Shown here: positions 1,248 through 56,657 of the stretch, in pieces
Position numbering within the stretch: position 1 is the stretch's first letter
Layout: each line of letters begins with the position of its first letter
Origin: Mobula hypostoma
Lineage: Eukaryota
Assembly: GCF_963921235.1 (NCBI RefSeq)
Contig: NC_086097.1
Span: 158,598,001 to 158,662,000, forward strand
DNA length: 64,000 nt
Reading direction: 5' to 3'
Made by a program: the position numbers and the translations under genes
The notes under the pieces: model-generated
What the model saw: only the letters and a program-made list of their open reading frames with translations
What the model was told of the DNA's origin: nothing
Database searches by the model: none

Positions 1248-1615
1248 AATGTACACAAGGAACTCTGCAGATGCTGGAAATCCAAAGCAATGCACACAAA
1301 ATGCTTGAGGAACTCAGAGATCAGGTAGCATCCATGGAAATGATCAGTCAACATTTTGAGCCAAGACCCTTCTACAGGACTCGAAAGGGAGGTTGTAGAT
1401 GCCAGAATAAAAAGGTGGGAGGAGGGGAAGGAGGATAGCTAGAAGGTGATAGGTGAAGCCATGGAGGTGGGAAGCGCTGAAGAGGAAGCAATCTGTTAAG
1501 GAGAGTCGAGTGGACCATAGGAAAAAGGGAAGGAGGAGGGGCACCAGGAGAGGTGATAGGCAGCTGTAAAGAGGTAAGAGGCCAGAATGGGGAATAGAAG
1601 AGGAAGGGAGGGGAC
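1248..1615 (-). mobile_element. Penelope-like element 3' terminal fragment with degenerate hammerhead (1346-1381)
   Basis: Similar to the 3' end of the PLE at 18170-18600 (ctgcagatgctggaaat...gacccttc...ggact followed by purine-rich tract). Confidence 0.75.
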
Positions 1616-8055: not shown

Positions 8056-9170
8056 GAATCAGAATCAGGTTTATTATCATGTGACGTGAAATTTGTTAAC
8101 TTAGCAGCAGCAGTTCAATGCAATACATAATCTAGCAGAGAGAGAGAAAAAAAACAGAATAAATAAACAAGTAAATCAATTATATATATTGAATAGATTA
8201 ATAAAAATGTGCAAAAACAGAAATACTGTATACTAAAAAAGTGAGGTAGTGTCCAAAGTTTCAAAGTCCATTTAGGAATCAGATGGCAGAGGGGAAGAAA
8301 CTGTTCCTGAATCACTGAGTGTGTGCCTTCAGGCTTCTGTATCTCCTACCTGATGGTAACAGTGAGGAAAGTGCATGCTCTGGGTGCTGGAAGTCTTTAA
8401 CAATGGACGCTGCCTTTCTGAGACACCGCTCCCTAAAGATGTCCTGGGTACTTTGTAGGCTAGTGCCCAAGATGGAGCTGACTAGATTTACAACCTTCTG
8501 CAGCTTCTTTTGGTCCTGTGTAATAGCCCCTCCTTAGCAGAGAGTGATGCAGCCTGTCAGAATGCTCTCCACAGTACAACTATAGAAGTTTTTGAGCATA
8601 TTTGTTGACATGCCAAATCGCTTCAAACTCCTAATGAAGTATAGCTGCTGTCTTGCCTTCTTTGTGACTACATCAATATGTTGGGACCAGGTTAGATCCT
8701 CAGAGATCTTGACACCCAGGAACTTGAAGCTGCTCACTCTCTCCACTTCTGATCCCTCGATGAGGATTGGTATGTGTTCCTTCATCTTACCCTTCCTGAA
8801 GTCCACAATCAGCCCTTTCGTCTTACTGACGTTGAGTGGCAGGTTGTTGCTTCGGCACCATCCCACTAGGTGGCATATCTCGCTCCTGTATGCCCTCTTA
8901 TCACCATCTGAGATTCTACCAACAATTGTTGTATCGTCAGCAAACTTGTAGATGGTGTTTGAGCTGTGCCTAGCCACACAGTCATGTGTATACAGAGAGT
9001 AGAGCAGTGGGCTAAGCACACATCCTTGAGGTGCACCAGTGTTGCTTGTCAGTGAAGAGGATATGTTATCACCAATCCGCACAGACTATGGTCTTCCGGT
9101 TAGGAAGTCGACAATCCAATTGCAGAGGGAGGTACAGAGGCCCAGGTTCTGCAACTTCTCAATTAGGATT
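8056..9170 (-). mobile_element. Rex1/Babar-type LINE, 5'-truncated
   Basis: ORF 8534-9082 with [33 protein letters not shown]; 3' tail (ATTCTG)n read as agaatcagaatcagg at 8057. Confidence 0.88.
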
Positions 9171-15329: not shown

Positions 15330-15875
15330 CATATCAGATGACGGCTTTGCAGAACACCTGAATTCAGCCACCAGGGTTGATGCTTCAGGTTTAGTGCTAC
15401 CCTACTTCACTATCCTGTTTACACTTTGACCTTTCTGTGTTCCTTCCTGCACAGTGAGGCACAATGTAGGTTACCTCATCTTCTGTCTGCATGCATTGCA
15501 ACCTTTCAGGATACAATACTGAATTTAGGTAACTCATTCTTTCTGTCTATATGAGAACTCGCATTTTTGCCTGTCATTATTTTGGCTCAGTTTTTCTTTC
15601 TGTATTAGCACAAGTTGGTTTAGTACCAACGTCTTGCTATTAGGAAAAAAAATTACACAAAGAAATACAATCTGATACTCTTCACTGCAGTATTAACTCC
15701 CCTATTGAAGATTTTCCCTTTGTTCTTCCCATCCCTCATCTACATTTTCTGCCTCTGAAGACTCTGCTGATTTCTCTCTTTGCTAGTTTTGAAGAAGGTT
15801 CTCAGTCCTGAAAGAATAATTCCATAAATTCTTCCTGACCTGCTGAGTGTTTCCAGCATTTTCTGTTTTTGTTTT
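15330..15875 (+). mobile_element. Old Penelope-like GIY-YIG and 3' end remnant
   Basis: 'tttgcagaacacctg', 'ctcatcttctgtctg' (LIF) and terminal 'cctgacctgctgagtgtttccagcattttctg'. Confidence 0.55.
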
Positions 15876-16699: not shown

Positions 16700-17235
16700 A
16701 TATTTATACCATCAGGTTGGAGGCTTTCCAGATGAAAAATGAAGTCGAGTAGAGGAGGCCATGGACTGATTTATGGGAAAGGGAAGTAGTATTGAAATGG
16801 GTGGCCATTAGGAAATCCTACCTTTTGTGTTAGACAGAGCAGAGGTGTTTGACAAAGTGGTCCCCTAATCTATGGCGGGTCTCACTAATGTAGAGAAGAG
16901 AGCAATGGATGCAGCAGATGACCCTGACAGATTCACAGGTGAAATGTTGCCTCACTCGGAAAGAGTGTTTGTGGCCTTGAATGGCGGTAAGGGAGGAGGT
17001 AAAGGGGCAGCTTTAGCACTTGTTTCATTTGTAGGGATAAGTGCCAGGACGGAAATCAGTGGGGAGGGACAAGTGGCAAGGGAGGCAAGTAAATTGCTAT
17101 CTCTATGAAAAGCGTATTTACTGCTCCCATGGTGTGGGGAGAGAAAGATGTGCTTAGTTATAGGATGCCGTTGTAAGTTTGCAGAAGTAATGGAGAATAA
17201 CATGCTGGATACAGAGACGTGCAGGGTGGTAGGTA
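16700..17235 (-). mobile_element. Penelope-like element fragment (linker and GIY-YIG region)
   Basis: Aligns by eye to 18605-19190 of the younger PLE; ORF 16952-17203 shares LQRHPITKHIF. Confidence 0.8.
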
Positions 17236-18169
17236 AATTTAATTGTGTGCTCAGTATAATATGCTGTACTTAAATAGCAGAAAATGCAATAACATACTGT
17301 CAAGTCAAATTTATCGTAATTTAACTATATACATATATATAATGTGTATAACCATATAATGTATATATAAACGAGACAACATTTCTCTGAACAAGGGTGT
17401 AAAGCACAGTAGAACACATAACACATGATAACTTATGAAGATAAGGATAAATATATGCTGGGTTTTGCTCACTATCTCACTTGGAATTGTTGAAAATTAC
17501 CCTCATAAGCATTGGTAAGTTACAGAACCTGGGCCTCTACCTTCCTCTGCAATTGGATCCTCGACTTCCTAACTGGAAGACCACAACCTGTGCAGGCTGG
17601 TGATAGCATCTCCTCATCGCTGACAATCAACACTGGTACACCTCAGAGGTGTGTGCTTAACCCACTGCTCTACTCTCTCTATACTCATGATTATGTGGCT
17701 AGGCATAGCTCAAATACCGTCTATAAATTTGCTGATGATACAACCATTGTTGGTAGAATCTCAGATGGTGACGAGAGGGCATACAGGCGTGAGATATGCC
17801 AACTAGTGGACTGGTGTTGCAGCAACAACCTAGCACTCAATGTCAATGAGATGAAAGAGCTGATTGTGGACTTCAGGAAGGGTAAGAAGAAGGAACACAT
17901 ACCAATCCTCATAGAGGGATCAGAAGTGGAGAGAGTGAACGGTTTCAAGTTCCTGGGTGTCAAGATCTCTGAGGATCTAACCTGGTCCCAATATATCGAT
18001 GCAGTTATGAAGAAGGCAAGACAGCGACTATACTTCATTAGGAGTTTGAAGAGATTTGGTATGTCAACAAATACACTCAAAAACTTCTATAGTTGTACTG
18101 TGGAGAGTATTCTAACAGGCTGCATCACTGTCTGATATGGGGAGGGGAGAGCTACTGCAGAGGGTTGTA

Positions 18170-19587
18170 GCACACACAAAATGCTGGTGGAACGCAGCAG
18201 GCCAGGCAGCATCTATAGGAAGAAGTACAGTCGACGTTTCGGGTCGAGACCCTTCGTCAGGACTAACGGAAAAAAGAGATAGAAAGAGATCTGAAAGTGG
18301 GAGGGGGAGGGGGAGGGGGAGACCCAAAATGATAGGAGAAGACAGGAGGGGGAGGGATGAAGCCAAGAGCTGGGAAGTTGATTGGCAAAAGGGATACAAG
18401 GCTGGAGAAGGGGGAGTATCATAGGATGGAAGGCCTTGGAAGAAAGAAAGTGGGAGGGGAGCACCAGAGGAAGATGGAGAACAGGCAAGGCGTTATTGTG
18501 AGAAAGAAAGAGAGAATAAACAAACAAATAAATAAATAAATAAATAAATAAGGGATGGGGTAAGAAGGGGAGGAGGGGCATTAACGGAAGTTAGAGAAAT
18601 CACCGTTCATGCCATCAGGTAGGAGGCTAACCAGACGGAATATAAGGTGTTGTTCCTCCAACCTGAGTGTGGCTTCATTTCGACAGTAGAGGAGGCCATG
18701 GATAGACATATCAGAATGGGAATGGGATGTGGAATTAAAATGTGTGGCCACTGGGAGATCCTGCTTTCTCTGGCGGACAGAGCGCAGGTGTTCAGTGAAG
18801 TGGTTTACCAATCTGCGTCAGGTCTCATTAATATATAGAAGGCTGCATCTGGAGCATCGGACACAGTATATCACACCAGCAGGCTCACAGATGAAGTGTC
18901 ACCTCACCTGGAAGGACTGTCTGGGGCCCTGAATGGTGGTGAGGGAGGAAGTGTAAGGGCAGGTGGAGCACTTGTTCCGCTTACAAGGATAAGTGCCAGG
19001 AGGGAGATCGATGGGAAGGGATGGGGGGACGAATGGACAAGGGAGTCACGTAGGGAGCGATCCCTGCGAAAAGCAGGAAGTGGGGGGAAGGAAAGATGTG
19101 CTTGGTGGTGGGATTCCATTGGAGATGGCAGAAGTTAGGGAGAATTATATGTTGGATATGGAGGCTGGTGGGATGGTAGGTGCAGACAAGAGGAACCCTA
19201 TCCCTAGTTGGGTGGTGGGAGGATTGGGTAAGAACAGATGTGCATGAAATGGGAGAGATACATTTGAGGGCGGAGTTGATGGTGTAGGAAGGGAAGCCTT
19301 CTTTCAAAAAAGGAAGACATCTCCTTCGTCCTGGAATGAAAAGCCTCATTCTGAGAGCAAATGTGGCAGAGACGGAGGAATTGAGAGAAGGGAATGGCAT
19401 TTTTACAGGTAACAGGGTGGGAAGAGGAATAATCCAGGTAGCTGCGAGAGTCTGTGAGCTTATAGTAGACATCAGTAGATAAGCTGTCTCCAGAGATAGA
19501 GACAGAGAGATTATGGAAGGGGAGAGAGGTGTCGGAAATGGACCAGATAAATTTGAGGGCAGGATGGAAGTTGGAGGCAAAGTTGAT
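18170..19587 (-). mobile_element. Penelope-like retroelement, 5'-truncated (RT C-terminus + GIY-YIG endonuclease + 3' terminal repeat)
   Basis: ORF 19204-19614 (NFHPALKF, TDVYYK, YLDYSSSHP, IPFSQFLR); ORF 18581-18811 (FTEHLRSV, PVATHFN, LEEQHLIFRL, PDGMN); 10-bp TSD GAGGGTTGTA at 18160-18169 and 19588-19597. Confidence 0.92.
18229..18264 (-). ncRNA. Minimal type I hammerhead ribozyme motif (PLE-associated)
   Basis: Minus strand AGUC-CUGACGA-A-GGGUC-UC-GACCC-GAAAC-GUC-GACU: core CUGANGA and GAAA, stem II, GUC cleavage triplet, stem I AGUC/GACU. Confidence 0.85.
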
Positions 19588-21254
19588 GAGGGTTGTAAGT
19601 TTAGTTGGCTCCATCTAGGGTACTAGTCTACAAATTACCCAGGACATCTTCAAGGAACGGTGTCTCAGAAAGGCAGTATCTATTATTAAGGACCTCCAGG
19701 ACCCAGGGCATGCCCTTTTCTCACTGTTACCATCAGGTAGGAAGTACAGAAGCCTGAAGGCACACACTCAGCGATTCAGGAACAACTTCTTTTTCTCTAC
19801 CATCCGATTCCTAAATGGACATTAAACCTTTGAACACTACCTCACTTTTTAATATATATATTCTGTTTTTTGCACTGTTAATCTATTCAAAATATGTATA
19901 CTGTAATTGATTACTTAGTTATTATTATTATTATTTTCTATATTTTCTGCTGCTGCTAAGTTAATGAATTTCATGACACATGCCGGTGATACTAAACCTG
20001 ATTCTGATTCTGATTCTGATGTCTCTTGAGTAAGTGTCAAAGTTTTCCCCTTTCCCAGCTATGATAACATTTTTGTTTCGATTATTTTAGTCGAAACTTC
20101 ATTTTTTATTTTAAATTCTTCAAATTATTACGGTGTTTACTTTGACTATATTGAAAGTACTGTCTTAAGAAGGATAAAGTACACGAAAAAACTTTGACGG
20201 ACTGGAGAGGTGAGGCATAGTTTCTTGCTAGCTATTTCAGCAGGTGGGGGGGTGGAGAGGACTTTATTTTTCTGGGCAATCCACATATTTCTGTCAGTGT
20301 AAGCAAATAACTTTACACCTGGCCCCAGAATGGTTTTGGCCAGCAAGATGTGTACAAGTTTTGTAAATGTGCAGTAATAAAATTATTTACTGTTGAAAAA
20401 ATTAGTGTCCAAAGTAATTCTTCACTGCATCTTTATTTAGTGAACAATTTCATGAAAACAAAGTACCTCTATTTGAATTTGGCTTTAATATGTTGTGAAG
20501 TTATAACATGGACTCTTTATCTCAAATGAAATTTCAGTTTCCTTATTTATTTCATAGACACTGCCAAAGTAATATGTAGTTATCTGTTGTCATACACGAA
20601 CAATACTCTCCATGATGTTATGCGCACTGTTGTTGCTTCCCTTTGGCTTGACTTTAAGAAAAAAATAATTAATGCTGTTGCATTCTTTTCTTAAATGTTG
20701 AAATCAAAAATAAGCAATTTAATTGCCTTATCATTATGCACCCTCAGATTTCTTGTTATCCAAAATTGATGTTCCATTACTTACTTAATTACGTAACATA
20801 GCTTCATCGTAATTTATGTTGTCAGGGAATGGTTAGCACATGAGAGCTCAGGTCATTGAGGCAAATGGTAGACTCTTGTTTAAGGGGAAGCTCAACAAGT
20901 CCATAAGGCAGAAAGCAAAAGAAGGATATGTCCATAAAGGGAGATGAAATAAGGTGGGATAGGACTCAGGAGGTGCCTGAATGTCGGCAGAGGGGAGATA
21001 AATCGAATGGCGTATTTCTTGCTCTTGTAAACCTTGGTCTGTGTGATGTACTGAAATAAATACAAGAAAAAACTGGCAAAATTCAGTCAGTTTATACCAT
21101 GGGATTATATTAAGCTTTTTTAGGAGAAGGTCATTTTTAATTTTATGTTTCAAAGGGCTTAGAAATGAGCTGAACAGTCATTCCTGAAGGATTTTGTGGG
21201 AATGTTATTACTTCTGCAGGAAGTAACTATTGCATTTTAGTGATTGGAAGCTAA

Positions 21255-24562: not shown

Positions 24563-27500
24563 TTACATTAAATGAAAATATTGAATAAAAGGTCCCCAAA
24601 TCTGTTCAAATTTAAATGAAGAATCATAAAGGTTACTTCTAATTTTCTCCAGATTCAAACATAAAATCGTCTGAGAAAACCAAAAAAAGGTAGTTGGAGC
24701 ATTAAGCTCTTTCCAATGTTGTAAAATACATCTTTTCGCCATCAAAGTAAGAAATGCAATCATTCTACGGGCTGAAGGGGAAAGATTACTAGAAATTTTA
24801 GGTAGTCCAAAGATAGCAGTAATAGGGTGAGGAGAGATATCTATATTTAATACCTTAGAAATAATATTGAAAATATCTCTCCAAAAAGTTTCCAAAGTAG
24901 GGCAAGACCAAAACATATGAGTTAAAGAGGCTATCTGCCCCGAACATCTATCACAGAAAGGATTAATATGCGTGTAAAAACGCGCTAACTTATCTTTGGA
25001 CATATGTGCTCTATGAACCACTTTAAATTGAATTAGGGAATGTTTAGCACAAATAGAGGAAGTATTAACTAATTGTAAAATCTGCCCCCAATCATCCACA
25101 GAGATGGTAAGCCCCAATTCCTGTTCCCAATCTACCCTAATCTTATCAAATGGAGCTTTCCTAAGTTTCATAATAATATTATAAATCATAGCCGATGCAC
25201 CTTTCTGACATGGATTAAGGTTAATTATCGAATCTAAAATATATATAGGAGGAAGCATTGGAAAGGAAGAAAGTATAGTACTTAAGAAATTTCTAACTTG
25301 TAAATATCTAAAAAAATGTATTCTTGATAAGTTATATTTATTAGATAATTGTTCAAAAGACATAAGGGAACCATCTAAAAATAAATCCAAAAACCGTAAA
25401 ATACCCTTAGTCTTCCAAGTTTGAAAAGCGCGATCCGTAAAAGAGGGAGGAAAAAATATGTTACCTAAAATAGGAATTGCTAACCCGAATTGATTAAGAT
25501 CAAAAAATTTTCTGAATTGAAACCAAATACGCAAAGCATATTTAACGATCGGGTTAGAGACCTGCTTAAGGCGTTTCGAATCAAAGGGAAGAGATGAACC
25601 TAAAATAGAACCAAGTGTATAACCCTGAACAGATTGTAATTCCAATGCTACCCATTTAGGAATAGATAGTATGTCCCGGTCAAGTAACCAAAATTTCATA
25701 TGTCGAATATTAATAGCCCAATAATAAAATCTAAAGTTAGGTAATGCTAAACCTCCATCTCTCTTAGCTTTCTGTAAATGTATTTTACCCAGTCTCGGAT
25801 TCTTATTCTGCCAAATAAATGAAGAAATTTTAGAGTCGACTTTATCAAAAAAAGATTTAGGAACGAAAATTGGTAATGCCTGAAACACATATAAAAATTT
25901 TGGCAAAAAAAACATCTTAACTGCATTAATACGACCAATCAAAGTTAAATATAAGGGAAACCATTTAGATGAAAGTTGAGTAATATGGTCTATTAATGGT
26001 AAAAAGTTAGTCTTAAATAAATCTTTATGTTTACAAGTAATTTTAATCCCAAGATATGAAAGGTAATTATTAATCAATTTAAATGGAAATTTATAATATA
26101 AGGGAAGATGTTTATTAATCGGAAAAAGTTCACTCTTACTAAGATTTAATTTATAACCTGAGAAAAGACCAAATTGTGCTAATAACTCTAAAACAGCAGG
26201 AATAGATCTCTCAGGATTAGAAATATATAAAAGTAAATCATCAGCATAGAGTGATAATTTATGGAACTTTAATCCCCGAGTTATCCCAGTAATATTTGAA
26301 GATTCTCGAATAGCAATTGCAAGAGGTTCTAATGCAATATCAAATAATAGGGGACTAAGAGGACAGCCTTGTCGAGTACCACGAAAGAGAGGAAAAAAAG
26401 GTGAGTTTAAAGAGTTAGTACGAACCGAGGCTACAGGGGAGTGATATAACAGTTTAATCCAGGATATAAATTTCAAGCTAAAATTAAACATTTCAAGCAC
26501 CTTAAATAAATAAGGCCATTCTACTCTATCAAAAGCTTTCTCGGCATCTAAAGAAATAACACACTCAGGAACATTTTGTGAGGGAGTATAAACGATATTT
26601 AACAATGTACGAATATTATAAAAAGAGTAACGACCTTTAATAAAACCCGTTTGGTCTTCCGAAATAATAGAAGGAAGTACTTTTTCTAGTCTATTTGCTA
26701 ATAACTTAGAAAAAACTTTAGAATCAACATTTAATAAAGATATTGGTCTATAAGATGCACATTGAGCAGGGTCTTTATCCTTCTTTAGTATTAAAGAAAT
26801 TGATGCTCTATTAAAAGATTCCGGAAGTTTACCAAGTTTCAAAGAAGCCTCAAAAACCTTATAGAGCCAAGGAATCAATAAAGAAGCAAAACATTTATAA
26901 AATTCAACGGTAAACCCATCAGGGCCAGGAGCTTTCCCCAGATTCATAGAAAAAATAACATTCTTAATCTCATCCATTGTAATGGAAGTATCTAATAAAG
27001 AAGACATATCCTGTGAAATCTGAGGGAAGTCTAACTTATCTAAAAAATCATTCGTATATTTAGAATCTCGAGGAGACTCTGATTGATATAAAGAAGAATA
27101 AAAATCACAAAAGGTTTGATTAATCCCCACATGATCCAATATCAATCGATCATTTTGGTTATAAATCTGATTGATTTGAGATTTAACATAATTAGATTTC
27201 AATTGATTAGCCAGCAGCTTGCCAATTTTATCACTATGAACATAAAAATCACTTCTTGTTTTCTTTAATTGGTTTACAATCGAGGACGAGAGTAGTAAAC
27301 TGTGTTCCATTTGAAGTTCAGTTCTTTGTTTGTATAGCTCCTCAGAAGGAGCCATAACATATTTCTTATCAATTTCTTTAATCTTGTCCACAATTGCCAT
27401 CTCCTCCTGCTTCTGTTTCTTCCTCAAAGCAACGGAATACGAAATAATCTGACCCCGAATATAGGCTTTAAAAGTGTCCCAAAGAGTGTTAACCGAAATA

Positions 27501-28339
27501 TCTTCTGTATGGTTAATTGTAAAAAAAAGCTCAATCTGTTCATTCATAAAATTAACAAAGTCCGAGTCCTGAAGCAACAGCGAATTAAAACGCCATTGTC
27601 TATTGTTTGGTATATTGGCCATAATTTTAATAGAAAGCTTAAGTGGAGCATGATCCGAAATGGTTATAGAATCATAATCACATTTAATCACTGAAGGAAT
27701 GAGACGAGAGTCAATAAAAAAATAATCAATTCTTGAATAGGAATGATGAACATGTGAAAAAAAGGAAAAATCTTTTTCCTGAGGATGCAGAAAACGCCAA
27801 ATGTCCGTCGACCCAGAATCAGAAAGAAAAAAATTAATCAAATTTGCAGATTTATTAGGTAAAGTCCGTAAAGGAGCCGAACGGTCCAAAGCTGGAGATA
27901 AACAGGTATTAAGATCTCCGCCCCAAATCAATGAAAACTCGTTCAAATTCGGAAACTGATCAAACAATGATTTATAAAATTCCGGACAATCCATATTAGG
28001 AGCATAAACATTAACCAAAACTACTTTTTTATTAAATAGTAAACCACTAACCAATAAAAATCTACCATTCGGATCAGAGATAATATCCTGTTGTATAAAA
28101 GTAACTGAGGAATCTATAAAAATAGAGACGCCTCGAATCTTAGCATTGGAGTTCGAATGAAATTGTTGTCCCTTCCAGAATTTGAAAAAACGTAGTCTGT
28201 CCCCCCTCCGTACATGGGTCTCTTGTAAAAATAAAATTTGTGCTTTAAGTCTCCGGAACACTTTAAAAACTTTTTTTCTTTTAATAGGATGATTAAGACC
28301 ATTAGTATTCCAGGAGACAAAATTAATAATAGACTCCAT
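24563..28339 (-). CDS. L1 ORF2p (APE endonuclease, reverse transcriptase, C-terminal CCHC), 1258 aa from the first ATG
   Basis: SWNTNGL, FLQETH, GGDLN, SRIDY, SDH; YRPISLLN, DAEKAFDRV, QGCPLSP, YADD; CDRC...HMFWSC. The 28393 start in the ORF track is a TTG; the ATG is at 28339. Confidence 0.95.
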   Translation of the reverse strand: MESIINFVSWNTNGLNHPIKRKKVFKVFRRLKAQILFLQETHVRRGDRLRFFKFWKGQQFHSNSNAKIRGVSIFIDSSVTFIQQDIISDPNGRFLLVSGLLFNKKVVLVNVYAPNMDCPEFYKSLFDQFPNLNEFSLIWGGDLNTCLSPALDRSAPLRTLPNKSANLINFFLSDSGSTDIWRFLHPQEKDFSFFSHVHHSYSRIDYFFIDSRLIPSVIKCDYDSITISDHAPLKLSIKIMANIPNNRQWRFNSLLLQDSDFVNFMNEQIELFFTINHTEDISVNTLWDTFKAYIRGQIISYSVALRKKQKQEEMAIVDKIKEIDKKYVMAPSEELYKQRTELQMEHSLLLSSSIVNQLKKTRSDFYVHSDKIGKLLANQLKSNYVKSQINQIYNQNDRLILDHVGINQTFCDFYSSLYQSESPRDSKYTNDFLDKLDFPQISQDMSSLLDTSITMDEIKNVIFSMNLGKAPGPDGFTVEFYKCFASLLIPWLYKVFEASLKLGKLPESFNRASISLILKKDKDPAQCASYRPISLLNVDSKVFSKLLANRLEKVLPSIISEDQTGFIKGRYSFYNIRTLLNIVYTPSQNVPECVISLDAEKAFDRVEWPYLFKVLEMFNFSLKFISWIKLLYHSPVASVRTNSLNSPFFPLFRGTRQGCPLSPLLFDIALEPLAIAIRESSNITGITRGLKFHKLSLYADDLLLYISNPERSIPAVLELLAQFGLFSGYKLNLSKSELFPINKHLPLYYKFPFKLINNYLSYLGIKITCKHKDLFKTNFLPLIDHITQLSSKWFPLYLTLIGRINAVKMFFLPKFLYVFQALPIFVPKSFFDKVDSKISSFIWQNKNPRLGKIHLQKAKRDGGLALPNFRFYYWAINIRHMKFWLLDRDILSIPKWVALELQSVQGYTLGSILGSSLPFDSKRLKQVSNPIVKYALRIWFQFRKFFDLNQFGLAIPILGNIFFPPSFTDRAFQTWKTKGILRFLDLFLDGSLMSFEQLSNKYNLSRIHFFRYLQVRNFLSTILSSFPMLPPIYILDSIINLNPCQKGASAMIYNIIMKLRKAPFDKIRVDWEQELGLTISVDDWGQILQLVNTSSICAKHSLIQFKVVHRAHMSKDKLARFYTHINPFCDRCSGQIASLTHMFWSCPTLETFWRDIFNIISKVLNIDISPHPITAIFGLPKISSNLSPSARRMIAFLTLMAKRCILQHWKELNAPTTFFWFSQTILCLNLEKIRSNLYDSSFKFEQIWGPFIQYFHLM

Positions 28340-29063
28340 AAATCCTAAAGTCAACCCACAACAAGGAGGATTGACAATAGGCGTGACCCACAAACCCGGA
28401 GAGGAAACAGAACATACAAAAGATACCGGGGAAAAGGACGCAACCAGTACTTCAATAATGTATATAACCCAAAGAAAAACAAACTAAAACGTGAAGCCCC
28501 TCCCACCACCCCCCACCCCAAGACCCCAAGGCAAAATCTAAAGCAGACCCGCCAGAAAGAAGCAAGCGCTAAAACTACCCCCATGACTTCCGGTATACGC
28601 TCCCTAAAAAAAAGGTATAAATATGAAAAGGATCAGCTGATTGTAAAACAGTAAAAAAATAAGTAAAAAAAAAGTTAGCTCAATTAGAATACACACAGAA
28701 CAGAACAAAAGCCGGAAAATATATATTAAAAAAAACCACAATAAACCTCAAACTCATGAATAGACACAGCAACAAAAAAAAATAGGATTATTAACATAAA
28801 GTGATTATAAAAAGCAAAACAGAATAAAATTTTTAAAAAAACTACAAAATTTAAGGCTGCACAGGAAATACGTAAGATGACAAAAGGGAAGTAACCACCC
28901 AGAATCCCCTGGGAAAAGAAAGAAATGACGCAGTTAAAAAGAAAGTTTAGCAGCCATATTAAGAAATCAAAAGTAAACCTTTCTGCCCAAATAGGGCACA
29001 GAAAAGTTAAAACCAACCAATTCACAGCCTCCGATCAACGGAGAAAATTAAAAAAAAAGGCAA

Positions 29064-29963
29064 TTAAGATGTTGAAGATGAACGTTGATCCAGATAACTC
29101 TGGGCATCCGATGGAGAATCAAAAAAACGAAGGGCTCCATCTAACATGCGAATCCTTAGACGTGCAGGGTACAGCAGCGCTGGTCTTAAATCCATCTTAT
29201 AGAATTCCGACATCACGGATCTGTAACGGACCCGTTGGTCCCAGATTGGTTTACTGAAATCTTCCACGAATCGGAACTTAAGATCCGAAAAATCAATGAA
29301 ACCTTTAGATCGAGCGAATCGAAACAGTCTCTCCTTGTCTTGAAAGTAATGAAAACGTAAAATAACATGCCTAGGTCTATCTGACCTAGACGAGTATGAT
29401 GGGATTCTGTGAACACGATCCAGTAGCGGTGGTTGGTCAGGAAATACAGTAGGGAATGCATCTTTTAAAAGTTGAGAGAAATATTTCATGGGGTTGTTAG
29501 CTTCAACGGCTTCTCTCACGCCGATCATTCTTAAATTCTGCCGTCGCATTCTAGATTCCAAGTCAGAGTTTTTAAAAGTCAAAAAGTCAAGTTTCTTCTT
29601 CATTACATTAATTGTTTCTTCGATTTTCCCCATCTTAAGCTCACTTTGTTGCGCGAATTTTTGAAGATCAGATATAGCCGACTGATGTTCCGCAATACAT
29701 GTTTGCATCTTATCAATTAAATCGGCAATTTTCTGGAAATTAGTTGAGATTTCCGCATGAATCAGATCTTTAACAAAGCCTGCAATTTCCGTACGAATCA
29801 TCTCCCTAACAGAGGTTGAAATTTCCCTCTGAATTAACTCCGATATCGCTTTCAAAGTCACCGGTGATTCAGTCGGAGGGAGATCCGTAGCTTTCGGTTT
29901 AGCCGAAGGTTTACCATCCTTGCCGTTTTTCCCGTTCTTAGACATAGCAGATCTAAGTATCAT
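29064..29963 (-). CDS. L1 ORF1p (coiled coil, RRM, CTD), 299 aa
   Basis: Heptad region followed by RRQNLRMIGVRE, DRVHR, RPRHVILRF, LLYPARLRI motifs of L1 ORF1p. Confidence 0.93.
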   Translation of the reverse strand: MILRSAMSKNGKNGKDGKPSAKPKATDLPPTESPVTLKAISELIQREISTSVREMIRTEIAGFVKDLIHAEISTNFQKIADLIDKMQTCIAEHQSAISDLQKFAQQSELKMGKIEETINVMKKKLDFLTFKNSDLESRMRRQNLRMIGVREAVEANNPMKYFSQLLKDAFPTVFPDQPPLLDRVHRIPSYSSRSDRPRHVILRFHYFQDKERLFRFARSKGFIDFSDLKFRFVEDFSKPIWDQRVRYRSVMSEFYKMDLRPALLYPARLRIRMLDGALRFFDSPSDAQSYLDQRSSSTS

Positions 29964-30177
29964 CCAATTGTCAGAGAATTCAGTTTAATTCAAAGTATTA
30001 TAAAAATTGATGCCTTAATGGTTAATTAAAGTATAGCTGACCATAGAGTAAAAAAACTCAGAGGTAATGGAGCGAGTCAAGAACGCGACTTCACTCCATG
30101 AGCGCTACCGGAAGTCCCCGGTAGATCCAGATTACTGGCACATTTCCCACTCTCTTTAAAGTTTGGATTCACTGAAA

Positions 30178-35620: not shown

Positions 35621-37219
35621 CAGGTTTCCCCCACCATCCGAAGGCAGAGCGTTCCTATGAAACGGTTCGTAAGCCAAAATGTCGTAAAGCGAAGAAGCAA
35701 TTACCATTTATTTATATGGGGAAATTTTGTGAACGTTCGCAGACCCAAAAATAACCTACCAAATCATGCCAAATAACACATAAAACCTAAAATAACAGTA
35801 ACATATAGTAAAAGCAGGAATGATATGATAAATACACAGCCTATATAAAGTAGAAATACTTTTCCACAATCATAACTGAACTGTTCTCTGTCGCGAAAAT
35901 CTCACGCAAGCGCCGTCGGCAGAAAATCTCAAACAAGCGCTTTTGGCAAAAACACTCTCTCCAGTAACCTTTAAGCTATGATGCTGCCAAATCATACCAA
36001 ATAACACGTAGAAATACACAGCCTATATAAAGTAGAAATAATGTATGTACAGTGTAGTATCACTCACGGGAATCAGGAAGACAGCGCAGAGCACACTGAT
36101 GCTGGTGTGTTAGACTGAGTCGTCGCAGGCTGGGGTGGTGCAGTGGCCTCCACCCTCCAGGCCGCCGAGCGATACATTGCCGCGAAGCATGCAGGAATGC
36201 AGTGGTAGCCGGGAGGCACACAGCACATCTTTAAAACAAAAGCCGAAACAAACATGCTAATTAATTAGGTGCCGCCCGACACGTAATTGTTGGCCCAGAT
36301 CAGTGCCGATTTCTGATTGCGTCGCCTCTGATCTGGGCCGACAATTACGTGTCGGTGGCATCTAATTAATTAGCATATTTATTTCGGCTTTTATCTTAAA
36401 GATGTGCTGTGTGCCTCCCGGCTACTGTTGCATTCTCCGCGAATCGGTACAGTATCTGTCCACGGCCTGGCTGTTGGGGTGGTGGGACACTGGGGTGTCA
36501 TCTCGTCGTCTGTTTCCATTAGAGCAGGCAGCTCATCTTCTCCTATGACTGCCTGCCTCGATGTCGAAGGTCGAGGTTCCTCATCTGCTGTGGTTGATGT
36601 GGAAGGCTTGCTTGACTGCTGAGCTTTGCGCATTTTTCTATCACACAGTTCTTTAATAAGGACTCAACCCATCCTGCAAATATCTCCTAAACTGACATAA
36701 CCTTTCAAAATAAAAGTCGTACTTTATCATTACTCATTTGATTTTGATTGTTATCCTTTTTTCTTCCAATTGCATCAGCTCTTCATCTGTCAGTTCTTGG
36801 TCATGGGATGCCAAAATCTCTTCAACATCATGTTCGTAAGCTTCCACAAGCCAAACTCACGTTGTCCTTACTTTGTTCACCATGATCGAAACGCTTAATT
36901 ATGTCTAATTTTACACTAAGTGTAACACTCTTATGAGCTCTTTCAGGCGTTTCGGATACCTTAGAACTCATCTTGCAAACGTCTGCTCAATGCAACGTGT
37001 TAAAGCAACGTTGGCGAGAATCCGGGGGAGAGCTGCTGCTCGGGGTGCGTGCTGTCTTTTATCGCTCGCTGATTTTTTTGCGCACTGCTTTTTTATCGCG
37101 CGCTGCTTTTTTTCGTAACAGTGAAAACACCTTCTGAAAGCGAAAACAGAGTACTAATGTAGGTCTTCCGTAACAATGAGGTTTCATAAAGCGAACGTTC
37201 AAAAAGCGGGGGACACCTG
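35621..37219 (-). mobile_element. Tigger/pogo-like DNA transposon, internally deleted
   Basis: TIRs CAGGT(T/G)TCCCCC, TA flanks at 35619-35620 and 37220-37221; minus-strand transposase C-terminal remnant near 36750-36860 (DVEEILASHDQELTDEELMQLE). Confidence 0.88.
36195..36435. repeat. Long inverted repeat (about 109-bp arms, about 24-nt loop) inside the Tigger element
   Basis: gaatgcagtggtagccgggaggcacacagcacatcttt...ggcccagatcag is mirrored by ctgatctgggcc...aaagatgtgctgtgtgcctcccggctactgttgcattc. Confidence 0.92.
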
Positions 37220-37844: not shown

Positions 37845-37970
37845 ACGAGAAAGTGTGCAGATGTTGTAAATTGAAAGCAACATACTGGAGGAATTCAGCA
37901 GGTCAGTAAGAATCTATGGAAAAGAGTAAATAGTTGATGCTTTGGGCTGAGAACCTTCATCAGGATTCCT
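37845..37970 (-). mobile_element. Penelope-like 3' end remnant with degenerate hammerhead
   Basis: Reverse complement CCTGATGAAGGTTCTCAGCCCAAAGCATCAAC. Confidence 0.7.
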
Positions 37971-39079
37971 CCTATTCTGACGTTGGCTCCTACTCTTGGG
38001 TCCCAGACTCTTTTACTATTTGGAAACATTTTCTGCATATCTACTCCATCTAGGACTTTCAATATTCGGTAGATTTCAATGAGATGCTTCCTCATTCTTC
38101 TAAACTCCAGGGAGGACAGGCCCAGGACTTTCAAGCACACTTCATATGTTAATCCTTTCATACCTGGCATCATTTTCATAAACCTCCTCTGCACCTTCTC
38201 AGTTGCTAGCACATCCTTTTGTAGATATGGGACTCAACACATTGCTCCAAATATAGTTAGACAGTGCCTTATAAAGCCTCAACATTATACTGTATCCTTG
38301 TTTTTATATTCTAGTCCTCTGCAAATGAATACTAACATTGCATTTGCCTTCCTTGCTACTAAATCAACCTGCAAGTTGATCTTTAAGAAATCCTCGTCTA
38401 GTCCTCCCAAGTCCTCTTGCAGCTTCACTTTCTGAATTTTCTCCCCATTTGAAAAATAGTTTACACCTTTATTCATTTTACCAATATGCATGGTCATATA
38501 CTTCCGCAAACTGTATTCTATCTGCTGCTTCTTTGACCATTCTCCTAATCTGCTTAAGTCCTTCTGCAGACGCCCTGCCTTCTCAACAGTACCTGGCCCT
38601 CCACCTATCTTTGTATTGTTTGCAAACTGGCCAGAAATTTTGTCATCCAAATCATTGACATATAAGCTGAAAAGAAGCGATTCTAAAACCAACCAGAGGA
38701 GGCCATTCCCATTATTTGCCTTCTGCCAGTCAGCCAATCTTCTTTTCATGCCAGTATCTTTCCTGTAATACCATGGACTCCTATCTTGTTTAGCAGCCTC
38801 ACATGCAGCATCTTGTCAAAGGCCTTTTGAAAATCCAAGTAAACAGCATCCATTGACTACTCTGATTGCCTGTTATTTCCTCAAAAAATTTCAACAGATT
38901 TGTCAGGAAAGACTTTTCCCTTAATGAAATTATGCCAACTTAGGCCTATTTTATCATGTCCCTCCAAGCACCCCAAATTGCATTATCAGTAATAGGCTCT
39001 AACATCTTCTCTTCCACTGATGTCCGGTTGACTGTCGTATAATTTCCTGTCTTATGCATCCCACCCTTAAAAAGTCAAG

Positions 39080-39194
39080 CAACACACATCAAAGCTGCTG
39101 GTGAATGCAGCAGGCCAGGCAGCATCTCTAGGCAGAGGTACAGTCGACGTTGCTTGAATTTCCAGCATCTGCAGAATTCCTGTTGTTTGCGTTT
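39080..39194. mobile_element. 115-bp 5'-inverted Penelope terminal insertion
   Basis: 14-bp TSD CTTAAAAAGTCAAG at 39066-39079 and 39195-39208; left part is minus-strand PLE end, right part is plus-strand PLE end. Confidence 0.88.
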
Positions 39195-40697
39195 CTTAAA
39201 AAGTCAAGTTATGTCATTGTTGATTAACTGGACTCTGAAAACTTGCATTTGTTCCTCATCACACTTTAGTTACTTGTGCACAAAGAGAACAGCCTGCCAC
39301 CTGTTACCAAAGTATTCTAAAGTTTGAGTAAAGAAATTGCATTTTTAATAAGAAATTGACTAATTAGATATAGATATTGAACAATTGGTAACCTTGTGGA
39401 TATTCAAATTGCTTATTTTCATAATCAATTATCAATCTCTCTACAGTAATATAGGTGTTAATAACCAATGGAGTCTGCATGTTAAAGGCCAATGATACTT
39501 CAAATTGATAAAATAACTGACCTATAGTTTACAGTATGTCATCATTTGCATCCGTATCTTGTTTCAGTGTGCCAAATAATCCTGATCCCATGCTGGCTAA
39601 AGGGGAGCTATGCTCCAAAGGACTGTTCCATGTCAATTGTCTGTGCACTCCCTGTAAGCTATCCTTGCCTGGACGTTTTCTTAATCGTTGTCTAGACACA
39701 GATTCTATAGTAACATTGGTGATTTTCCAGTCCTGTAGAATCATTCGAAAATATAATGATCACTACTAATGCTTCCACAATCTCTTCAGCTACCTCTTTC
39801 AGAATCCTGGGTGTAACCCATCTGATCCAGGTGACTTATAGACCTTCAAACCTTTCAGCCTCCAAGGCACCTTTTCCTTAGTAACAGCGACTACACTCAC
39901 TTCTGTCCCCTGACATTCTTAAATTTCTGACATGCTGCTTGTGTCTTCCACAGTGAAGACTGCTACAAAATACTTATTAATCTATCATCTCTTTGGTCCC
40001 CATTACTGTCTTTTCAGCATCATTTTTCAATGGCCTGGTGTCCACTCTTGCTTCCCTTTTACTCTTCATATACCTGCAAAATCTATTGGTATCCTCTTTT
40101 AGATTGTTGTCTGGCTTTCAGTTTTCGTCTTTTCCCTCCATGTTGCTTTTTAGTTGCATCCTGTTAGTTTTTAAAATCTTCCCTGTCGTTTAGCTTCCTA
40201 CTAAGTTTTTCAATATTGTATGCTCTCTTTTGCTTTTATGCTGCCTTGGAGTTCCCTTGTTAGCCACAGTTGCCTCATACTCCCTTTGGCATGCTCCCTC
40301 TTTGGGCTGAACTGATCATGCATCATCCAATTTACTCCCAGAAACTCCAGACATCCCTTCCAATCATCTTTGGCCAGCTCCTCTCTCATGCCTTTGTGGT
40401 TACTTTTATTCCACTGTAACATTAATACATCTGATTTTAGCTTTTCCCTCTTAAATTAGAAGGTTAATTCTAGCATATTATGATCACCTCCTCCTAAGGG
40501 TTCCCTTACCCTTAAGCCCATAAATCAAATCTGTTAATTACACGATACTCATTCCAGAATTGTCTTTTCCCTTGTAGGCTTGACAGCAAGCTGCTCTAAA
40601 AGCCATCCCAAAAGTATTCTACAAATTCCTTCAACCAACACACATCAAAGTTGCTGGTAAACGCAGCAGGCCAGGCAGCATCTATTGGAAGAGTTTC

Positions 40698-40733
40698 AGT
40701 TGACGTTTCAGGCCAAGACCCTTCGTCAGGACT
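40698..40733 (-). ncRNA. Minimal hammerhead ribozyme motif (PLE)
   Basis: Reverse complement AGUCCUGACGAAGGGUCUUGGCCUGAAACGUCAACU. Confidence 0.75.
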
Positions 40734-41130
40734 AACTGAAGGAAGAGTTAGTAAGAGATTTGAAAGTGAGAGGGGGAGGGGGAGATCCAAAATGATAGGA
40801 GAAGACAGGAGGGGGAGGGATGGAGCCAAGAGCTGGACAGATTGGCAAAGGGGATATGAGAGGATCATGGGACAGGAGGCCCAGGGAGAAAGACGGATCT
40901 CTCACTCTCCTTTTTCTCCCTCTGTCCCTCTGACTATACCTCTCGCCCATCCTCAGTTCCCCCCCCCCCGTCTTTCTCCCCGGATCTCCTGTCCCATGAT
41001 CCTCTCATATCCCCTTTGCCAATCACCTGTCCAACTCTTGGCTCCATCCCTCCCCCTCCTGTCTTCTATCATTTTGGATCTCCCCCTCCCCCTCCAACTT
41101 TCAAATCCCTTACTCACTCTTCCTTCAGTT

Positions 41131-41166
41131 AGTCCTGACGAAGGGTCTTGGCCTGAAACGTCGACT
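41131..41166 (+). ncRNA. Minimal hammerhead ribozyme motif (PLE)
   Basis: AGUC-CUGACGA-AGGGUCUUGGCCU-GAAAC-GUC-GACU. Confidence 0.82.
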
Positions 41167-41707
41167 GAAACTCTTCCAATAGATGCTGCCTGGCCTGCTG
41201 CATTTACCAGCAACTTTGATGTGTGTTGCTTGAATTTCCAGCATCTGCAGAATTCCTGTTGTTGCTACAAATTCCTTCTCTTGGTATCCAGCACAACCTT
41301 ATTTTCCCAATTTACCTGCGTATTGAAATCCCCTAAGACCATTATACAGTATATCTCCCATTTTCATTTTTATCCCACAACTTGGCTATTGTTTGGATGC
41401 CTATTGATATCAATAATATTGTTAATATTATTTAGTATTAAGTTTAGGACTCTGACATAAATTGTATTATTAAACTGCATCCTTTTAATATGTACAGAAT
41501 ACTGGATGAAAGTACTGTGGGTGCTCTAGTTTCTTCATCTATTCCAAAGCCATGCAGTTTGATGTTAATAGATCACAGTGTGACCTATTCCCCCTAGTGT
41601 GTGCATGAGTGTTAGAACTTGAGAGTAGTTGATGCGAACGTGGGGAGAATAAGTAAATATGTTCAGTGTAGGATTTGTATAAATATGGGTGTTGATGGGC
41701 TACAGTA

Positions 41708-42685: not shown

Positions 42686-42908
42686 TATGGCGACCCATTT
42701 TCTAGCACACACGAACCGGCTCACAAAACAGCGCGCGCAGGCAGAGGGCCGGCCCCAAAAAGGGCGCCAGGCCATCTTCACCACCAGGGAGGGCGGAAAC
42801 GGGAAGGCTTTAAAGCAGGCTGTGAAGTTCGAATAAATCTCTTTATCGCTACTCCAACTCACCAACTCTGTGTGGTTATTCTAGTGCTGTGTGTAGCACA
42901 CTGCTACA
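42686..42908 (+). repeat. 5' LTR (223 bp)
   Basis: TATGGCGACCC...GCTACA, matches the 3' LTR; contains TTTAAA and AATAAA. Confidence 0.92.
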
Positions 42909-42910
42909 TT

Positions 42911-42924
42911 TGGTGACCCCGACG
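42911..42924 (+). promoter_or_regulatory. Primer binding site complementary to the tRNA-Trp 3' end
   Basis: TGGTGACCCCGACG 2 nt after the LTR; complement of vertebrate tRNA-Trp ...CGUCGGGGUCACCA. Confidence 0.88.
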
Positions 42925-42948
42925 GCCCAAACGATATTTGGGCCAGAG

Positions 42949-45900
42949 ATGACCGATGCCGCATCTGTTCACGCAGTTTTGTTAGAACTGCCAAGCTTTT
43001 TGGCCACTGAGACCCCGTCTGTGGTTGGAACAGGCAGAAGCACAATTCCACATTCGGCAGATAACCTCGGAGTCCACTCGCTACTACTACGTGCTGAGCT
43101 CTCTCGACCAAGAGACTGCTGCACAAATTGAGGAGTTTGTACAGTTGCCCCCGGAGAACGGCAAATACACAGCATTCAAAGCCCTGATCATAACGACTTT
43201 CGGACTCTCACGGCGCGAACGAGCACGCTGCTTAATACACCTGGATGGTATGGGAGACAGGCCGCCATCAGCATTAATGAACGAGATGCTGGCCCTGGCT
43301 GAAGGACACAAACCCTGCCTCATGTTTGAGCAGGCGTTCCTAGAGCAACTGCCCAAGGACATACGCCTGCTGCTGTCCGACACAGATTTCAGCGACCTCC
43401 GGGAGGTGGCGGCCCGAGCAGATGTGTTGTGAAATGCCAAGAAGGAGAGAGGGGCATCCGTCGCACAGATCACCAAGCCGCGTACCCAACAACAGACCAG
43501 ACCAGGCCCGGCAGCAGAGCCCAACGAACAATGGTGCTTCTATCACCAGCGGTGGGGCACAGAGGCCCGCTGCTGTAGACTACCCTGCAAATTCCTGGGA
43601 AACGCCAAGGCCCAGCCGTCGCTGATTGCTAAGGCGGCTGGCCATCAGGACAGCCTCCTGTACGTCTGGGACAAGCAGTCGGGACGCCGATTTTTGGTTG
43701 ACACTGGAGCAGAGATCAGCGCCTTACCTCCAACGAGTTACGACACCCGCAACAGAGAACCCGGACCCACCCTGAGGGCCGCAAATGGCAGCACAATACG
43801 AACCTATGGCACCCGTACGGTGCGGCTACAGTTCAGCTCCAGCTGGTTCACGTGGGACTTCACACTGGCCGCCGTGGCCCAACCACTCCTGGGGGCGGAT
43901 TATCTGCGAGCCCACAGCCTGCTGGTCGACCTGCAAGGGAAGCAACTAGTCCACGCCAAGACTTTTCAAACGTTCTCCCTGGGTGAAGCTAAGTTGCCAG
44001 CCCCACATCTGGACTCCATCACGCTGTCCAACGATGAATTCACCAGGGTCCTGGCGGATCTCCCATCTGACACCGCAATTCACGGCAGCCATGCCCAGAC
44101 ACGGAGTACAGCAACACATCCCGACCCAGGGACCATCCCTCCACGCCCGTGCTCGAAGGCTTCCCCCGTACAAGCTCCGACTGGCGAAGGAGGGGTTCAA
44201 GAAGATGGAGGAATTGGGGATCATACGACGGTCCGACAGCCCATGGGCCTCCCCACTGCACATGGTACCCAAGGCAACGGGGGGCTGGAGAACATGCGGT
44301 GACTACCACAGACTGAACGAGGCTACAACGTCAGACCGCTACCCTGTGCCGCACATTCAGGACTTTGCAGCAAACCTACACGGCGCAAGGATCTTTTCCA
44401 AGGTAGACCTCGTCCAGGGTACCATCAAATCCCGGTACATCCGGACGACATCCCCAAAACAGCACTCATCACCCCGTTTGGACTTTTCGAATTTCTCCGA
44501 ATGCCGTTTGGTCTAAAGAATGCCGCACAGATGTTCCAGCGGCTAATGGACGCGGTGGGATGAGACCTGGACTTCACATTCATCTGTTTGGACGACATCC
44601 TCATAGCCAGCAGTAGTCGTCAAGAGCATCTGTCCCACCTCCGCCAGCTCTACTCCCGCCTGAGCGAATTCGGCCTTACAATCAACCCAGCCAAATGCCA
44701 GTTCGGACTTGATACCATCGACTTCCTGGACCACAGGATTACTGAAGACGGGGCAACCCCACTGCCCGCCAAGGTAGACGCGGTTCGCAACTTCCCCCGA
44801 CCCAACACAATCAAAGGCCTGCAGGAATTCGTGGGTATGGTGAATTTCTACCACTGTTTCCTCCCCTTAGCAGCCCACACCATGCGCCCCCTGTTCACTC
44901 TGATGTCGGGTAAGGGCAAGGACATTACCTGGGACGAAGAGGCTGCAGCCGCCTTCGTTAAAACCAAAGAAGCCTTGGCAAACGCCGCGATGCTAGTGCA
45001 CCCCAGAACGGACGTTCCTACTGCCCTCACGGGGGACGCATCCAGCACAGCGGTCGGTGGAGTGCTGGAACAACTCATCAAGGGTCGCTGGCAACCCCTG
45101 GCATTCTTCAGCAAACACCCACGACCACCTGAACTCAAATACAGTGCTTTCAACCGGGAGCTATTGGCACTATACCTGGCAATCCGGCATTTCAGGTACT
45201 TCTTAGAAGGTAGGCCCTTCACCGCGTTCACAGACCACAAACCGCTTACCTTTGCGTTCATGAAGGTGTCCAACCCCTGGTCGTCCTGCCAGCAGTGACA
45301 TCTGTCCTACATCTCCGAGTACACAACGGACATCCGGCATGTCTCTGGAAAGGACAACGTCGTGGCGGACGCACTATCCAGACCTACCATACAGGCCCTG
45401 TCCCAGGGGGTGGACTATGCAGCGCTGGCAGAGGCACAGCAGGCAGACGCTGAGATCCCCAGTTACAGGACTGCAGTCTCCGGTTTGCAGCTCCAAGACC
45501 TCCCCGTAGGCCCAGGTGAGAGGACCCGACTGTGTGACGTAGCTACCGGCCTACCCCGCCCTGTCGTCCCAGCAGCCTGGTGCCGGCGGGTGTTCGAATC
45601 CATTCACAACTTAGCGCACCCCTCCATCAGGACAACCGTCCGGCTGGTCGCCAACAGGTTTGTGTGGCATGGTCTTCGTAAGCAGGTCAGTGAATGGGCC
45701 AAAACGTGCATGCAGTGCCAAATGGCCAAGGTTCAGCGGCACACCAAGGCTCCGCCGCAGCGGTTCGAACCCACCCGCTGGAGGTTCGACCACATTCATG
45801 TGGATATCGTGGGGCCCCTGCCAGTGTCACGAGGAGCGCGGTATCTCCTAACTATGATAGATCGGTTCATGAGATGGCCGGAGGCAGTCCCGCTCACCGA

Positions 45901-46708: not shown

Positions 46709-46974
46709 CACACACGAACCGGCTCACAAAACAGCGCGCGCAGGCAGAGGGCCGACCCCAAAAAGGGTGCCAGGCCATCTTCACCAGCAGGGGGAAAATC
46801 CCGCGCGCGGAAAGGGTCTGGGAATAGGCATTCCCCACAGTAGTCCCACCCGGGGAGCGCGGGAACAGGAAGGCTTTAAAGCAGGCCGCGAAGTCTGAAT
46901 AAATCTCTTTATCGCAACTCCAACTCACCGACTCCGTGTGGTTATTCTAGCACTGTGTGTAGCACACCGCTACA
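46689..46974 (+). repeat. 3' LTR (286 bp)
   Basis: TGTGGCGACCC...CGCTACA with canonical TG..CA ends. Confidence 0.93.
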
Positions 46975-48949: not shown

Positions 48950-49046
48950 GCACACATAAATTGCTGGAGAAACTCAGCAGGTCAGGCAGCATCTATGGAA
49001 ATTAATGAACGTTCACTATTTTGGGCCAAGACCTTTCATCAGGACC
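48950..49046 (-). mobile_element. Penelope-like 3' end remnant with degenerate hammerhead
   Basis: cacacataaattgctggagaaactcagcaggtcaggcagcatctatgg...gacctttcatcaggac. Confidence 0.7.
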
Positions 49047-55635: not shown

Positions 55636-56475
55636 TTTTAAAGGTCATACTTGTCTGGTATGCTAAGTCCTTCAGATGATCATGAATTCTGAAGATTATT
55701 ATTGCTTAGAGGGAAGTTACATGCTGCAGATCGCCATGGGAGTAATTCAAGAAAGGTATATTTGGAACAGTTGTCTGCAGCCCACAGAACATCACCAATG
55801 ATCACTGGTATCATCTTGACTCTTCTCCCCGCCCCCCGGCCCCTTACATCAGGTACAAGATACAAAAACTAAAAACATGCAACACCAAACTTAAAAGCAT
55901 CTCCTATTCCACTGTTAAAAGACCTTTGAATGGACCTCTCGGAAAGATGAACTCTTGACCGCACGATCTACTTCTTCATGGCCTTTGCACCTTATTGTCT
56001 ACCAACAATGCACTTTCTCTTTTGACTGTAACCACAACACCATATTCTGCATTCTGTTATTGCATCGTGGTTTGTATTTGTGTTTTGAAATTATCTGTAT
56101 GGATGATTTGCAAAACTACATTTTCTGAATATCTTGGTATATGTGGCAATTATAAATCAATTCCAATACCCCATGATTCTCTTAATATCCACAACTGGGT
56201 AAGTAGTTCTTTTATTGATCTGTTTACTGTTACTGAGCCAATAAGTTTTGTTTTGACAGGAGCTATAAAATTGTAATATTTTCATCTTTTTTGGGGATGA
56301 AATCTTTGAAATAATTTGCTTTGGAAATTTATATTTCTGGGCAGTCCAGTATACTCTCTGGCAAAGTGAAATCTGAAGCAGCTACCAGATGTGTGTGAAA
56401 CTAAGTGTGGTTCATTTAATTTTATACTTTAGCTAATATTCTGAAGTTTCCTGATGAATGTGAATCCAAAAGAAC

Positions 56476-56657
56476 ACATACAAAATGCTGGAGGAGCTCA
56501 ACAGGCCAGGCAACATCTATGGAAAAAAGTACACTCGACATGTTGGGCCGAAACATCGAGTGTACTTTTTTCCATAGATGCTGCCTGGCCTGCTGAGCTC
56601 CTCCAGCATTTTGTGTGTGTTGCTCAGATTTCCAGCTTCTGCAGATTTTTTCTTGTC
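56476..56657. mobile_element. Hairpin-shaped Penelope terminal insertion
   Basis: Approximate 17-bp TSD TGTGAAT(C/T)CAAA(A/G)GAAC at 56459-56475 and 56658-56674; arms about 56473-56538 and 56554-56621 are reverse complements. Confidence 0.82.

Follow-up and report, generated by a model that had tools for sequence, protein, structure and literature searches.

The hammerhead motif and the element that carries it

The window, by which we mean the whole 64-kb stretch of Mobula hypostoma DNA analysed, contains at 18170..19587 on the minus strand a 1.4-kb Penelope-like element (PLE) that is truncated at its 5' end, sits in a LINE fragment and is bounded by a 10-bp target-site duplication (18160..18169 and 19588..19597), a target sequence that is single in an uninterrupted LINE paralogue near 8489-8498 in the same window. 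Its upstream part, 18581..19587 (minus strand), is the remnant of a broken ORF in which the C-terminal part of a reverse transcriptase (RT) is followed by a C-x4-C-x2-C linker and a GIY-YIG endonuclease (EN), interrupted by frameshifts and two in-frame stops. The remainder, 18170..18580 (minus strand), is a 3' non-coding end (in tandem copies, the pseudo-LTR) without the optional tail. Within it, about 60 nt from the end of the element and separated from the stop codon by 319 nt of untranslated sequence (81% pyrimidine), lies a 36-base minimal type-I hammerhead motif at 18229..18264 (minus strand), recognized by sequence, fold and descriptor.

The motif comprises, on the minus strand, helix I (18264-18261 with 18232-18229), the first core box (18260-18254), one extra, unpaired A after A9 (18253), helix II (18252-18249 with 18244-18241), the second core box (from 18240), an ACGU palindrome (18237-18234) and C17 (18233), and the predicted cleavage site falls between 18233 and 18232. 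The GUC triplet is present, the 11 fixed core positions checked are all unchanged, and four of four pairs can form in each of helices I and II. The full core, both stems and the GUC triplet that an earlier note had read on this strand are all there as written; the 5-bp helix II with a 2-nt loop that it had drawn is ruled out by fold prediction, which gives 4 bp and a 4-nt loop. Positions 15.1-16.1 read ACGU without a loop, so that helix III is unable to close inside a single molecule, a point on which we agree with that note.

Is the motif a chance look-alike within a repeat? The published descriptor of minimal hammerheads (helix I of 3-7 bp, first core box with an optional extra base, helix II of 3-7 bp, second box followed by NNUH; PMC4209133 supplement Fig. 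S7) finds two sites in the 64-kb window, 18229 (minus strand) and 41131 (plus strand), which are two of the six listed copies; among 500 dinucleotide shuffles, four contained one site and none contained two, a rate of 0.008 per window. A descriptor built for this analysis also gave two sites in the window, and one site in 8 of 300 shuffles. Coincidence would fit with the Rfam covariance models, which returned no hammerhead among nine matches at E<=1 in the window (the miRNA-type matches fall on inverted insertions and other hairpins), and with helix covariation among the six window copies, which is not significant (86.7% of cells paired, with two double-sided changes; 135 of 500 shuffles equally high). 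Yet besides the low shuffle rate, the position at a PLE 3' end, the extra base at 9/10.1, the G10.1-C11.1 pair, the palindromic 15.2/16.2, the lack of loop 3 and the U-rich upstream flank agree with the published consensus, and several of these traits fall outside the descriptor; we give coincidence next to no weight.

Judged by its sequence, the motif is a complete minimal hammerhead of the PLE type in a known arrangement. It belongs as an ordinary member to a class known since 2014, whose description already covered solo copies in truncated elements (Cervera and De la Pena, PMC4209133). It shares with the motifs of metazoan PLE pseudo-LTRs described there the core boxes, the extra unpaired base after the first core box (typical of PLE hammerheads), the G10.1-C11.1 pair, a loop-less palindromic helix III, a short helix I and a U-rich upstream flank, as well as the occurrence mostly of solo copies in truncated elements and of opposite-strand pairs 100-700 bp apart; it differs in that its helix II, at 4 bp, is at the short end of the range, and in being known here from sequence. 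Cartilaginous fish are absent from the 56 motifs of Fig. S3 and from the table of PMC4209133 (one supplementary file lay outside the search), and the present case adds an example from them to the class, which matters little as it stands. Non-LTR retrozymes have been reported in one chondrichthyan genome (bioRxiv 10.64898/2026.07.22.740005), and the supplements of that report may already list the ray family.

The proteins closest to the carrier ORF, 10 matches among 129 candidates, all come from rays (eight from Hypanus sabinus, two from Mobula hypostoma), the six longest at 70-84% identity. GIY-YIG appears below the curated cut-off in four of the five ray relatives scanned (72-84% identity), and the Atlas neighbour clusters of the ORF have RVT_1 and GIY-YIG; through these relatives and neighbours the carrier shows the EN+ PLE order, RT then C-terminal GIY-YIG in one ORF. 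Pfam matched none of the window's own four PLE pieces, and PDB, NCBIfam and phage searches with the ray relatives gave no matches. Further EN+ PLE traits found in the window are 5' truncation, an inverted partner and an optional 30-40-bp tail at one end. The three linker cysteines are invariant in all six aligned proteins. A Zn-finger-like CX2-5CxxC linker between RT and EN marks the Neptune/Nematis clades and not Penelope/Poseidon (PMC8557442), and the carrier linker appears to be of the former type, a clade reading taken from the linker rather than from a tree; the presence of this Cys linker speaks against Penelope/Poseidon as the clade of the carrier. The element resembles Neptune/Nematis EN+ PLEs (PMC8557442) in its C-terminal GIY-YIG behind such a linker, its 5' truncation, inverted partner and tail, and differs in keeping only the C-terminal part of the ORF. 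The Poseidon PLE of Anolis carolinensis (PMC11167929) likewise has a hammerhead near the element end and a tail on some ends only, but it is a Penelope/Poseidon member whose ORF starts at helix II, whereas the ray element has the Cys-rich RT-EN linker.

The earlier description of these sequences as Penelope terminal repeats can therefore be kept in part: the element is a PLE and the motif has the terminal (pseudo-LTR) location, though in a solo end, while the linker speaks against a Penelope layout and the carrier is a solo 3' end without a second, paired repeat. An older linker and endonuclease fragment of the same PLE, 68% identical and without the 3' end, lies at 16748-17234 (minus strand). 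A metagenome scan with a 3'-flank pattern gave 17 loci that show no similarity beyond the pattern and were discarded as chance matches.

Further copies and inverted insertions

The five further copies that the earlier note had placed in the window were all recovered at the same coordinates and strands. Two of them, at 40698..40733 (minus strand) and 41131..41166 (plus strand), belong to one inverted insertion at 40633..41264, flanked by a 14-bp duplication (40619-40632 and 41265-41278) and made of a short minus-strand arm without a tail (40633-40897) and a longer plus-strand arm with a tail (40898-41264). The arms, each about 265 bp, are identical at 250 of 262 bases (95%), and the single insertion with its duplication rules out two independent insertions. 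Both copies had been called near-intact. This is right for the one at 41131, intact by descriptor and core check; the one at 40698 has an unchanged core and a G1.1>A change that breaks the first pair of helix I, adjoining the cut, and fails both descriptors.

Since the two copies sit in opposite arms of a single inverted insertion, transcription of either strand gives one sense ribozyme together with its antisense twin, and the inverted orientation leaves no cis dimer. Pairing to the antisense arm is predicted with probability >0.9 for 36 of 36 bases at 41131 (plus strand) and for 35 of 36 at 40698 (minus strand), and the two copies, being inverted and predicted to pair arm to arm, were ruled out as dimer partners. 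If transcribed, 40633-41264 is more likely, on this modelling, to form long double-stranded RNA than a ribozyme pair. Such RNA could be a substrate for editing or small-RNA production.

The other three copies are decayed, as had been noted before, and each has G12>A and one more core change: A6 is lost at 1346..1381, A15.1 at 37932..37967 and U16.1 at 49011..49046 (all minus strand), so that three of the six window copies are without G12. At 37932 and 49011 the similarity starts at the helix I edge. Upstream of that edge, at 37967 (minus strand) and at 49046 (minus strand), the sequence is unrelated, and no target-site duplication of at least 7 bp was found for either copy.

Partial motif remnants occur in addition near 39080-39151 (minus strand), at 56475-56619 (both strands) and at about 15790-15870 (plus strand). 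The first belongs to a mini-insertion at 39080..39194 (minus strand), flanked by a 14-bp duplication (39066-39079 and 39195-39208), in which an inverted tail is joined to a copy starting a few bases before the cut site; the second belongs to a small inverted insertion of a PLE 3' end at 56466..56657, with approximate ends and a flanking repeat of only 7 bp, in which both arms are truncated inside the motif and one arm has a tail. Both have the same layout as 40633-41264. This inverted structure with a tail on one end has been described for PLEs (PMC8557442) and, in the anole element, has been attributed to RT starting at two internal sites (PMC11167929). Non-LTR retrozymes (bioRxiv 10.64898/2026.07.22.740005) are likewise derived from PLE ends, but they are tandem hammerhead repeats, whereas the window copies are solo or inverted and form no head-to-tail tandem unit; a retrozyme, with at least two consecutive tandem units and whole hammerheads, was therefore rejected, there being no same-strand neighbouring copies in the window.

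Predicted folding and the fate of dispersed copies

What could a solo copy of this motif do? In fold prediction the monomer becomes a rod at -13.2 kcal/mol, its core bases 5-8 taken up in pairs with the bases of the cut site, and the open core scores -8.4 kcal/mol; the double hammerhead comes out at -15.7 kcal/mol, about 11 worse than the -26.4 kcal/mol of two monomer rods. These energies ignore non-canonical core contacts and come without a positive control. At 18236-18229 (minus strand), a six-base palindrome is made up of the cut triplet together with the three bases that follow it, and the same triplet recurs in helix I. Given this palindrome and the repeated triplet, the predicted pairing of two copies is not a double hammerhead but an extended, inactive duplex (-36.5 kcal/mol). 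Experiments have been made on related motifs: in Schistosoma, the monomer was inactive and the dimer or trimer weak (PMC4209133); of nine Xenopus retrozyme dimers, one showed cleavage (bioRxiv 10.64898/2026.07.22.740005); and in the anole PLE, the one full-length system studied in purified form, the hammerhead cut only with the element's protein present (PMC11167929). A review holds that, in tandem elements, PLE hammerheads likely act in dimeric form and at rates that are very low (PMC6765202). The general statement that PLE hammerheads cleave as dimers needs a qualifier: cleavage by dimers is reported as low (PMC4209133), and the anole hammerhead required protein (PMC11167929).

Variation within the family was read from public sequencing contigs, the form in which all 24 runs are listed (shares of 0.07-0.21), which can show variants but not RNA ends. 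A stretch of 136 bases (18165-18300), compared at an alignment threshold of at least 80% with the contigs of four of 24 listed public runs, aligned with 3,989, 4,779, 2,657 and 25,796 contigs per run, which bears out the abundance that had been claimed for the family. Nearly all listed variants within the motif are transitions at CpG. G12, the general base of the hammerhead (PMC6155905), is changed to A in 3.6, 25.8, 9.8 and 10.2% of contig depth in the four runs, and the G of a loop CpG is changed in 5.6, 22.3, 9.0 and 8.8% in the same runs, depth being a rough weight with one figure per contig and the runs coming from other or unidentified organisms. That G12 changes as freely as the loop CpG gives no sign of selection on individual copies. 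G8>A is absent at >=3% in all four runs, though the change at its CpG partner is listed; G8 may be under selection, or the alignments may have been clipped close to their end. At position 11.4, the family has G at 93-99% and the flagged copy has A, so that the U-A pair of this copy is a private change. Many contig alignments stop where helix I begins on its 5' side, and the 15 bases following the motif vary strongly from run to run; by sequence, the motif looks like a conserved island amid subfamily-variable flanks.

The motif and its fit to the descriptor, a PLE protein remnant with stops and frameshifts, the target-site duplications and the one-arm tails all point to a dead passenger. We consider it probable (about 0.85) that the flagged motif is a complete hammerhead carried inertly at this site, decaying neutrally in the broken 3' end of a 5'-truncated PLE. 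By analogy with other PLEs, live tandem source elements would have the motif in both pseudo-LTRs of one transcript, where the ACGU palindromes of two copies could pair to give a common helix III and allow cutting after GUC, probably aided by the element's own RT-endonuclease protein. In such live elements the motif would process the element's own RNA. A solo copy would leave helix III open, and its RNA is predicted to fold as an inactive rod. Retrotransposition, as we picture it, would copy from the 3' end, usually halt early and often add an inverted second copy, which would leave dead 3' ends scattered over both strands. The 64-kb window holds no intact tandem element, and the source-element step is drawn by analogy.

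The earlier note had gone further and suggested that dispersed copies could cut host transcripts crossing them if two copies pair; a wider version allows pairing in cis or trans, or help from PLE protein. For such cutting, the region would have to be transcribed and a same-strand partner would have to exist. Some observations are congenial to it: the 18229 copy is intact and lies outside any inverted repeat, the family is present in great abundance (2,657 to 25,796 contigs per run), the translated motif region occurs in two ray gene models and can hence lie in annotated transcripts, and introns hold fewer Xenopus retrozymes than expected (bioRxiv 10.64898/2026.07.22.740005). Other findings speak against it. 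The 18229 copy is the sole unsequestered intact one in 64 kb; the next copy on this strand to keep a whole core lies about 22 kb away, with one helix I pair broken and a double-stranded state predicted for it, as for the one intact copy on the plus strand. A dimer would share only the 4 bp of helix III and is the form predicted to lie about 11 kcal/mol above two rods. Nor was a host exon detected in the window: of 283 non-repeat frames of at least 48 aa, one matched Pfam, to a family also found on the LINE fragment, in a scan for which 37% of the window was masked and shorter frames fell outside, so that the region may be an intron. With the near pair inverted and double-stranded, one free intact copy and no exon found, the suggestion finds no support at this locus, and we regard it as highly improbable.

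A possible signal role and a candidate splice site at helix I

Alternatively, the motif may chiefly be a folded recognition or processing signal (for protein binding, splicing or translation start), with self-cleavage secondary or absent. This is compatible with the dead-copy explanation and differs from it only on the motif's job in live elements. In the anole PLE, catalytic mutants insert normally, cleavage being dispensable, and no RNA-seq ends map to the cut site (PMC11167929); Naiad PLEs proliferate without canonical hammerheads (PMC8557442); and helix I here opens with AG after a pyrimidine tract. Against this, both core boxes are kept in about 40 animal species while the helices vary (PMC4209133 supplement Fig. 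S3), and the C3G/G8C rescue shows real hammerhead chemistry in a PLE (PMC11167929). We think a primary signal role unlikely, and continue to favour an inert copy of a hammerhead at this site.

We also put forward, tentatively and with more doubt than confidence, that the terminal repeat of the ray PLE keeps a spliceosomal intron whose 3' splice site is the AG opening helix I, as in the fly Penelope. Four of the six copies have AG at the start of helix I after a stretch of 30 bases with 73-83% pyrimidine; the other two (37932 and 49011) begin at the helix I edge. The tract and AG, which border helix I on its 5' side and form a candidate 3' splice site, lie at 18263-18295 (minus strand), 40732-40760 (minus strand) and 41105-41132 (plus strand), with a heptamer at 40747-40753 (minus strand) that we take to be branch-point-like. 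In three of the four runs, loose contig ends show other pyrimidine tracts finishing at the same AG, and most of the family (83-99% of depth) has another AG, placed four bases upstream of the first. Two matches among 42 candidates, both gene predictions, are host proteins in which the element appears exonised; the start of one fits an acceptor lying 4 bases upstream of helix I, whereas that of the other is located further upstream. Two facts count against splicing: the whole carrier UTR is 81% pyrimidine, and the AG also belongs to helix I. One ray gene model (P0004) leaves the element sequence exactly at the last codon of the ORF, where a donor is possible.

In Drosophila virilis, the 3' end of the Penelope pseudo-LTR intron coincides with helix I's 5' end (PMC4209133; intron: PMC2377424), the same edge at which the ray copies have AG after a pyrimidine tract, but splicing has been shown in the fly and is only suggested by sequence in the ray, and helices II and III of the fly motif are atypical. 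Were the splice reading true, splicing would rebuild helix I and act as a hammerhead switch, a discrete RNA boundary would explain the copies that start at the helix I edge, and dispersed ends could be splice acceptors that draw the ribozyme into host mRNAs. A real splice site at helix I would join retained introns and hammerheads in one mechanism, in flies and vertebrates. A very abundant family with many near-identical copies makes good material for testing, through RNA ends and intron orientation, what PLE hammerheads do in cells.

The window holds several other mobile elements. An L1-type LINE at 24563-29984 (minus strand), with an open ORF1 (a 306-aa frame with an L1 RBD-like domain) and an open ORF2 (a 1306-aa frame with endonuclease, RT and zinc finger), looks intact and young. 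At about 42700-46970 (plus strand) lies a GC-rich element resembling an LTR retrotransposon; its RT, RNase H and integrase pieces are interrupted by stops and changes of frame, and it has a match resembling a primer-binding site at 42891-42924. A GC-rich palindromic element at about 36150-36480, which has an 81-nt hairpin at its centre (36276-36356), resembles a miniature inverted-repeat DNA transposon.
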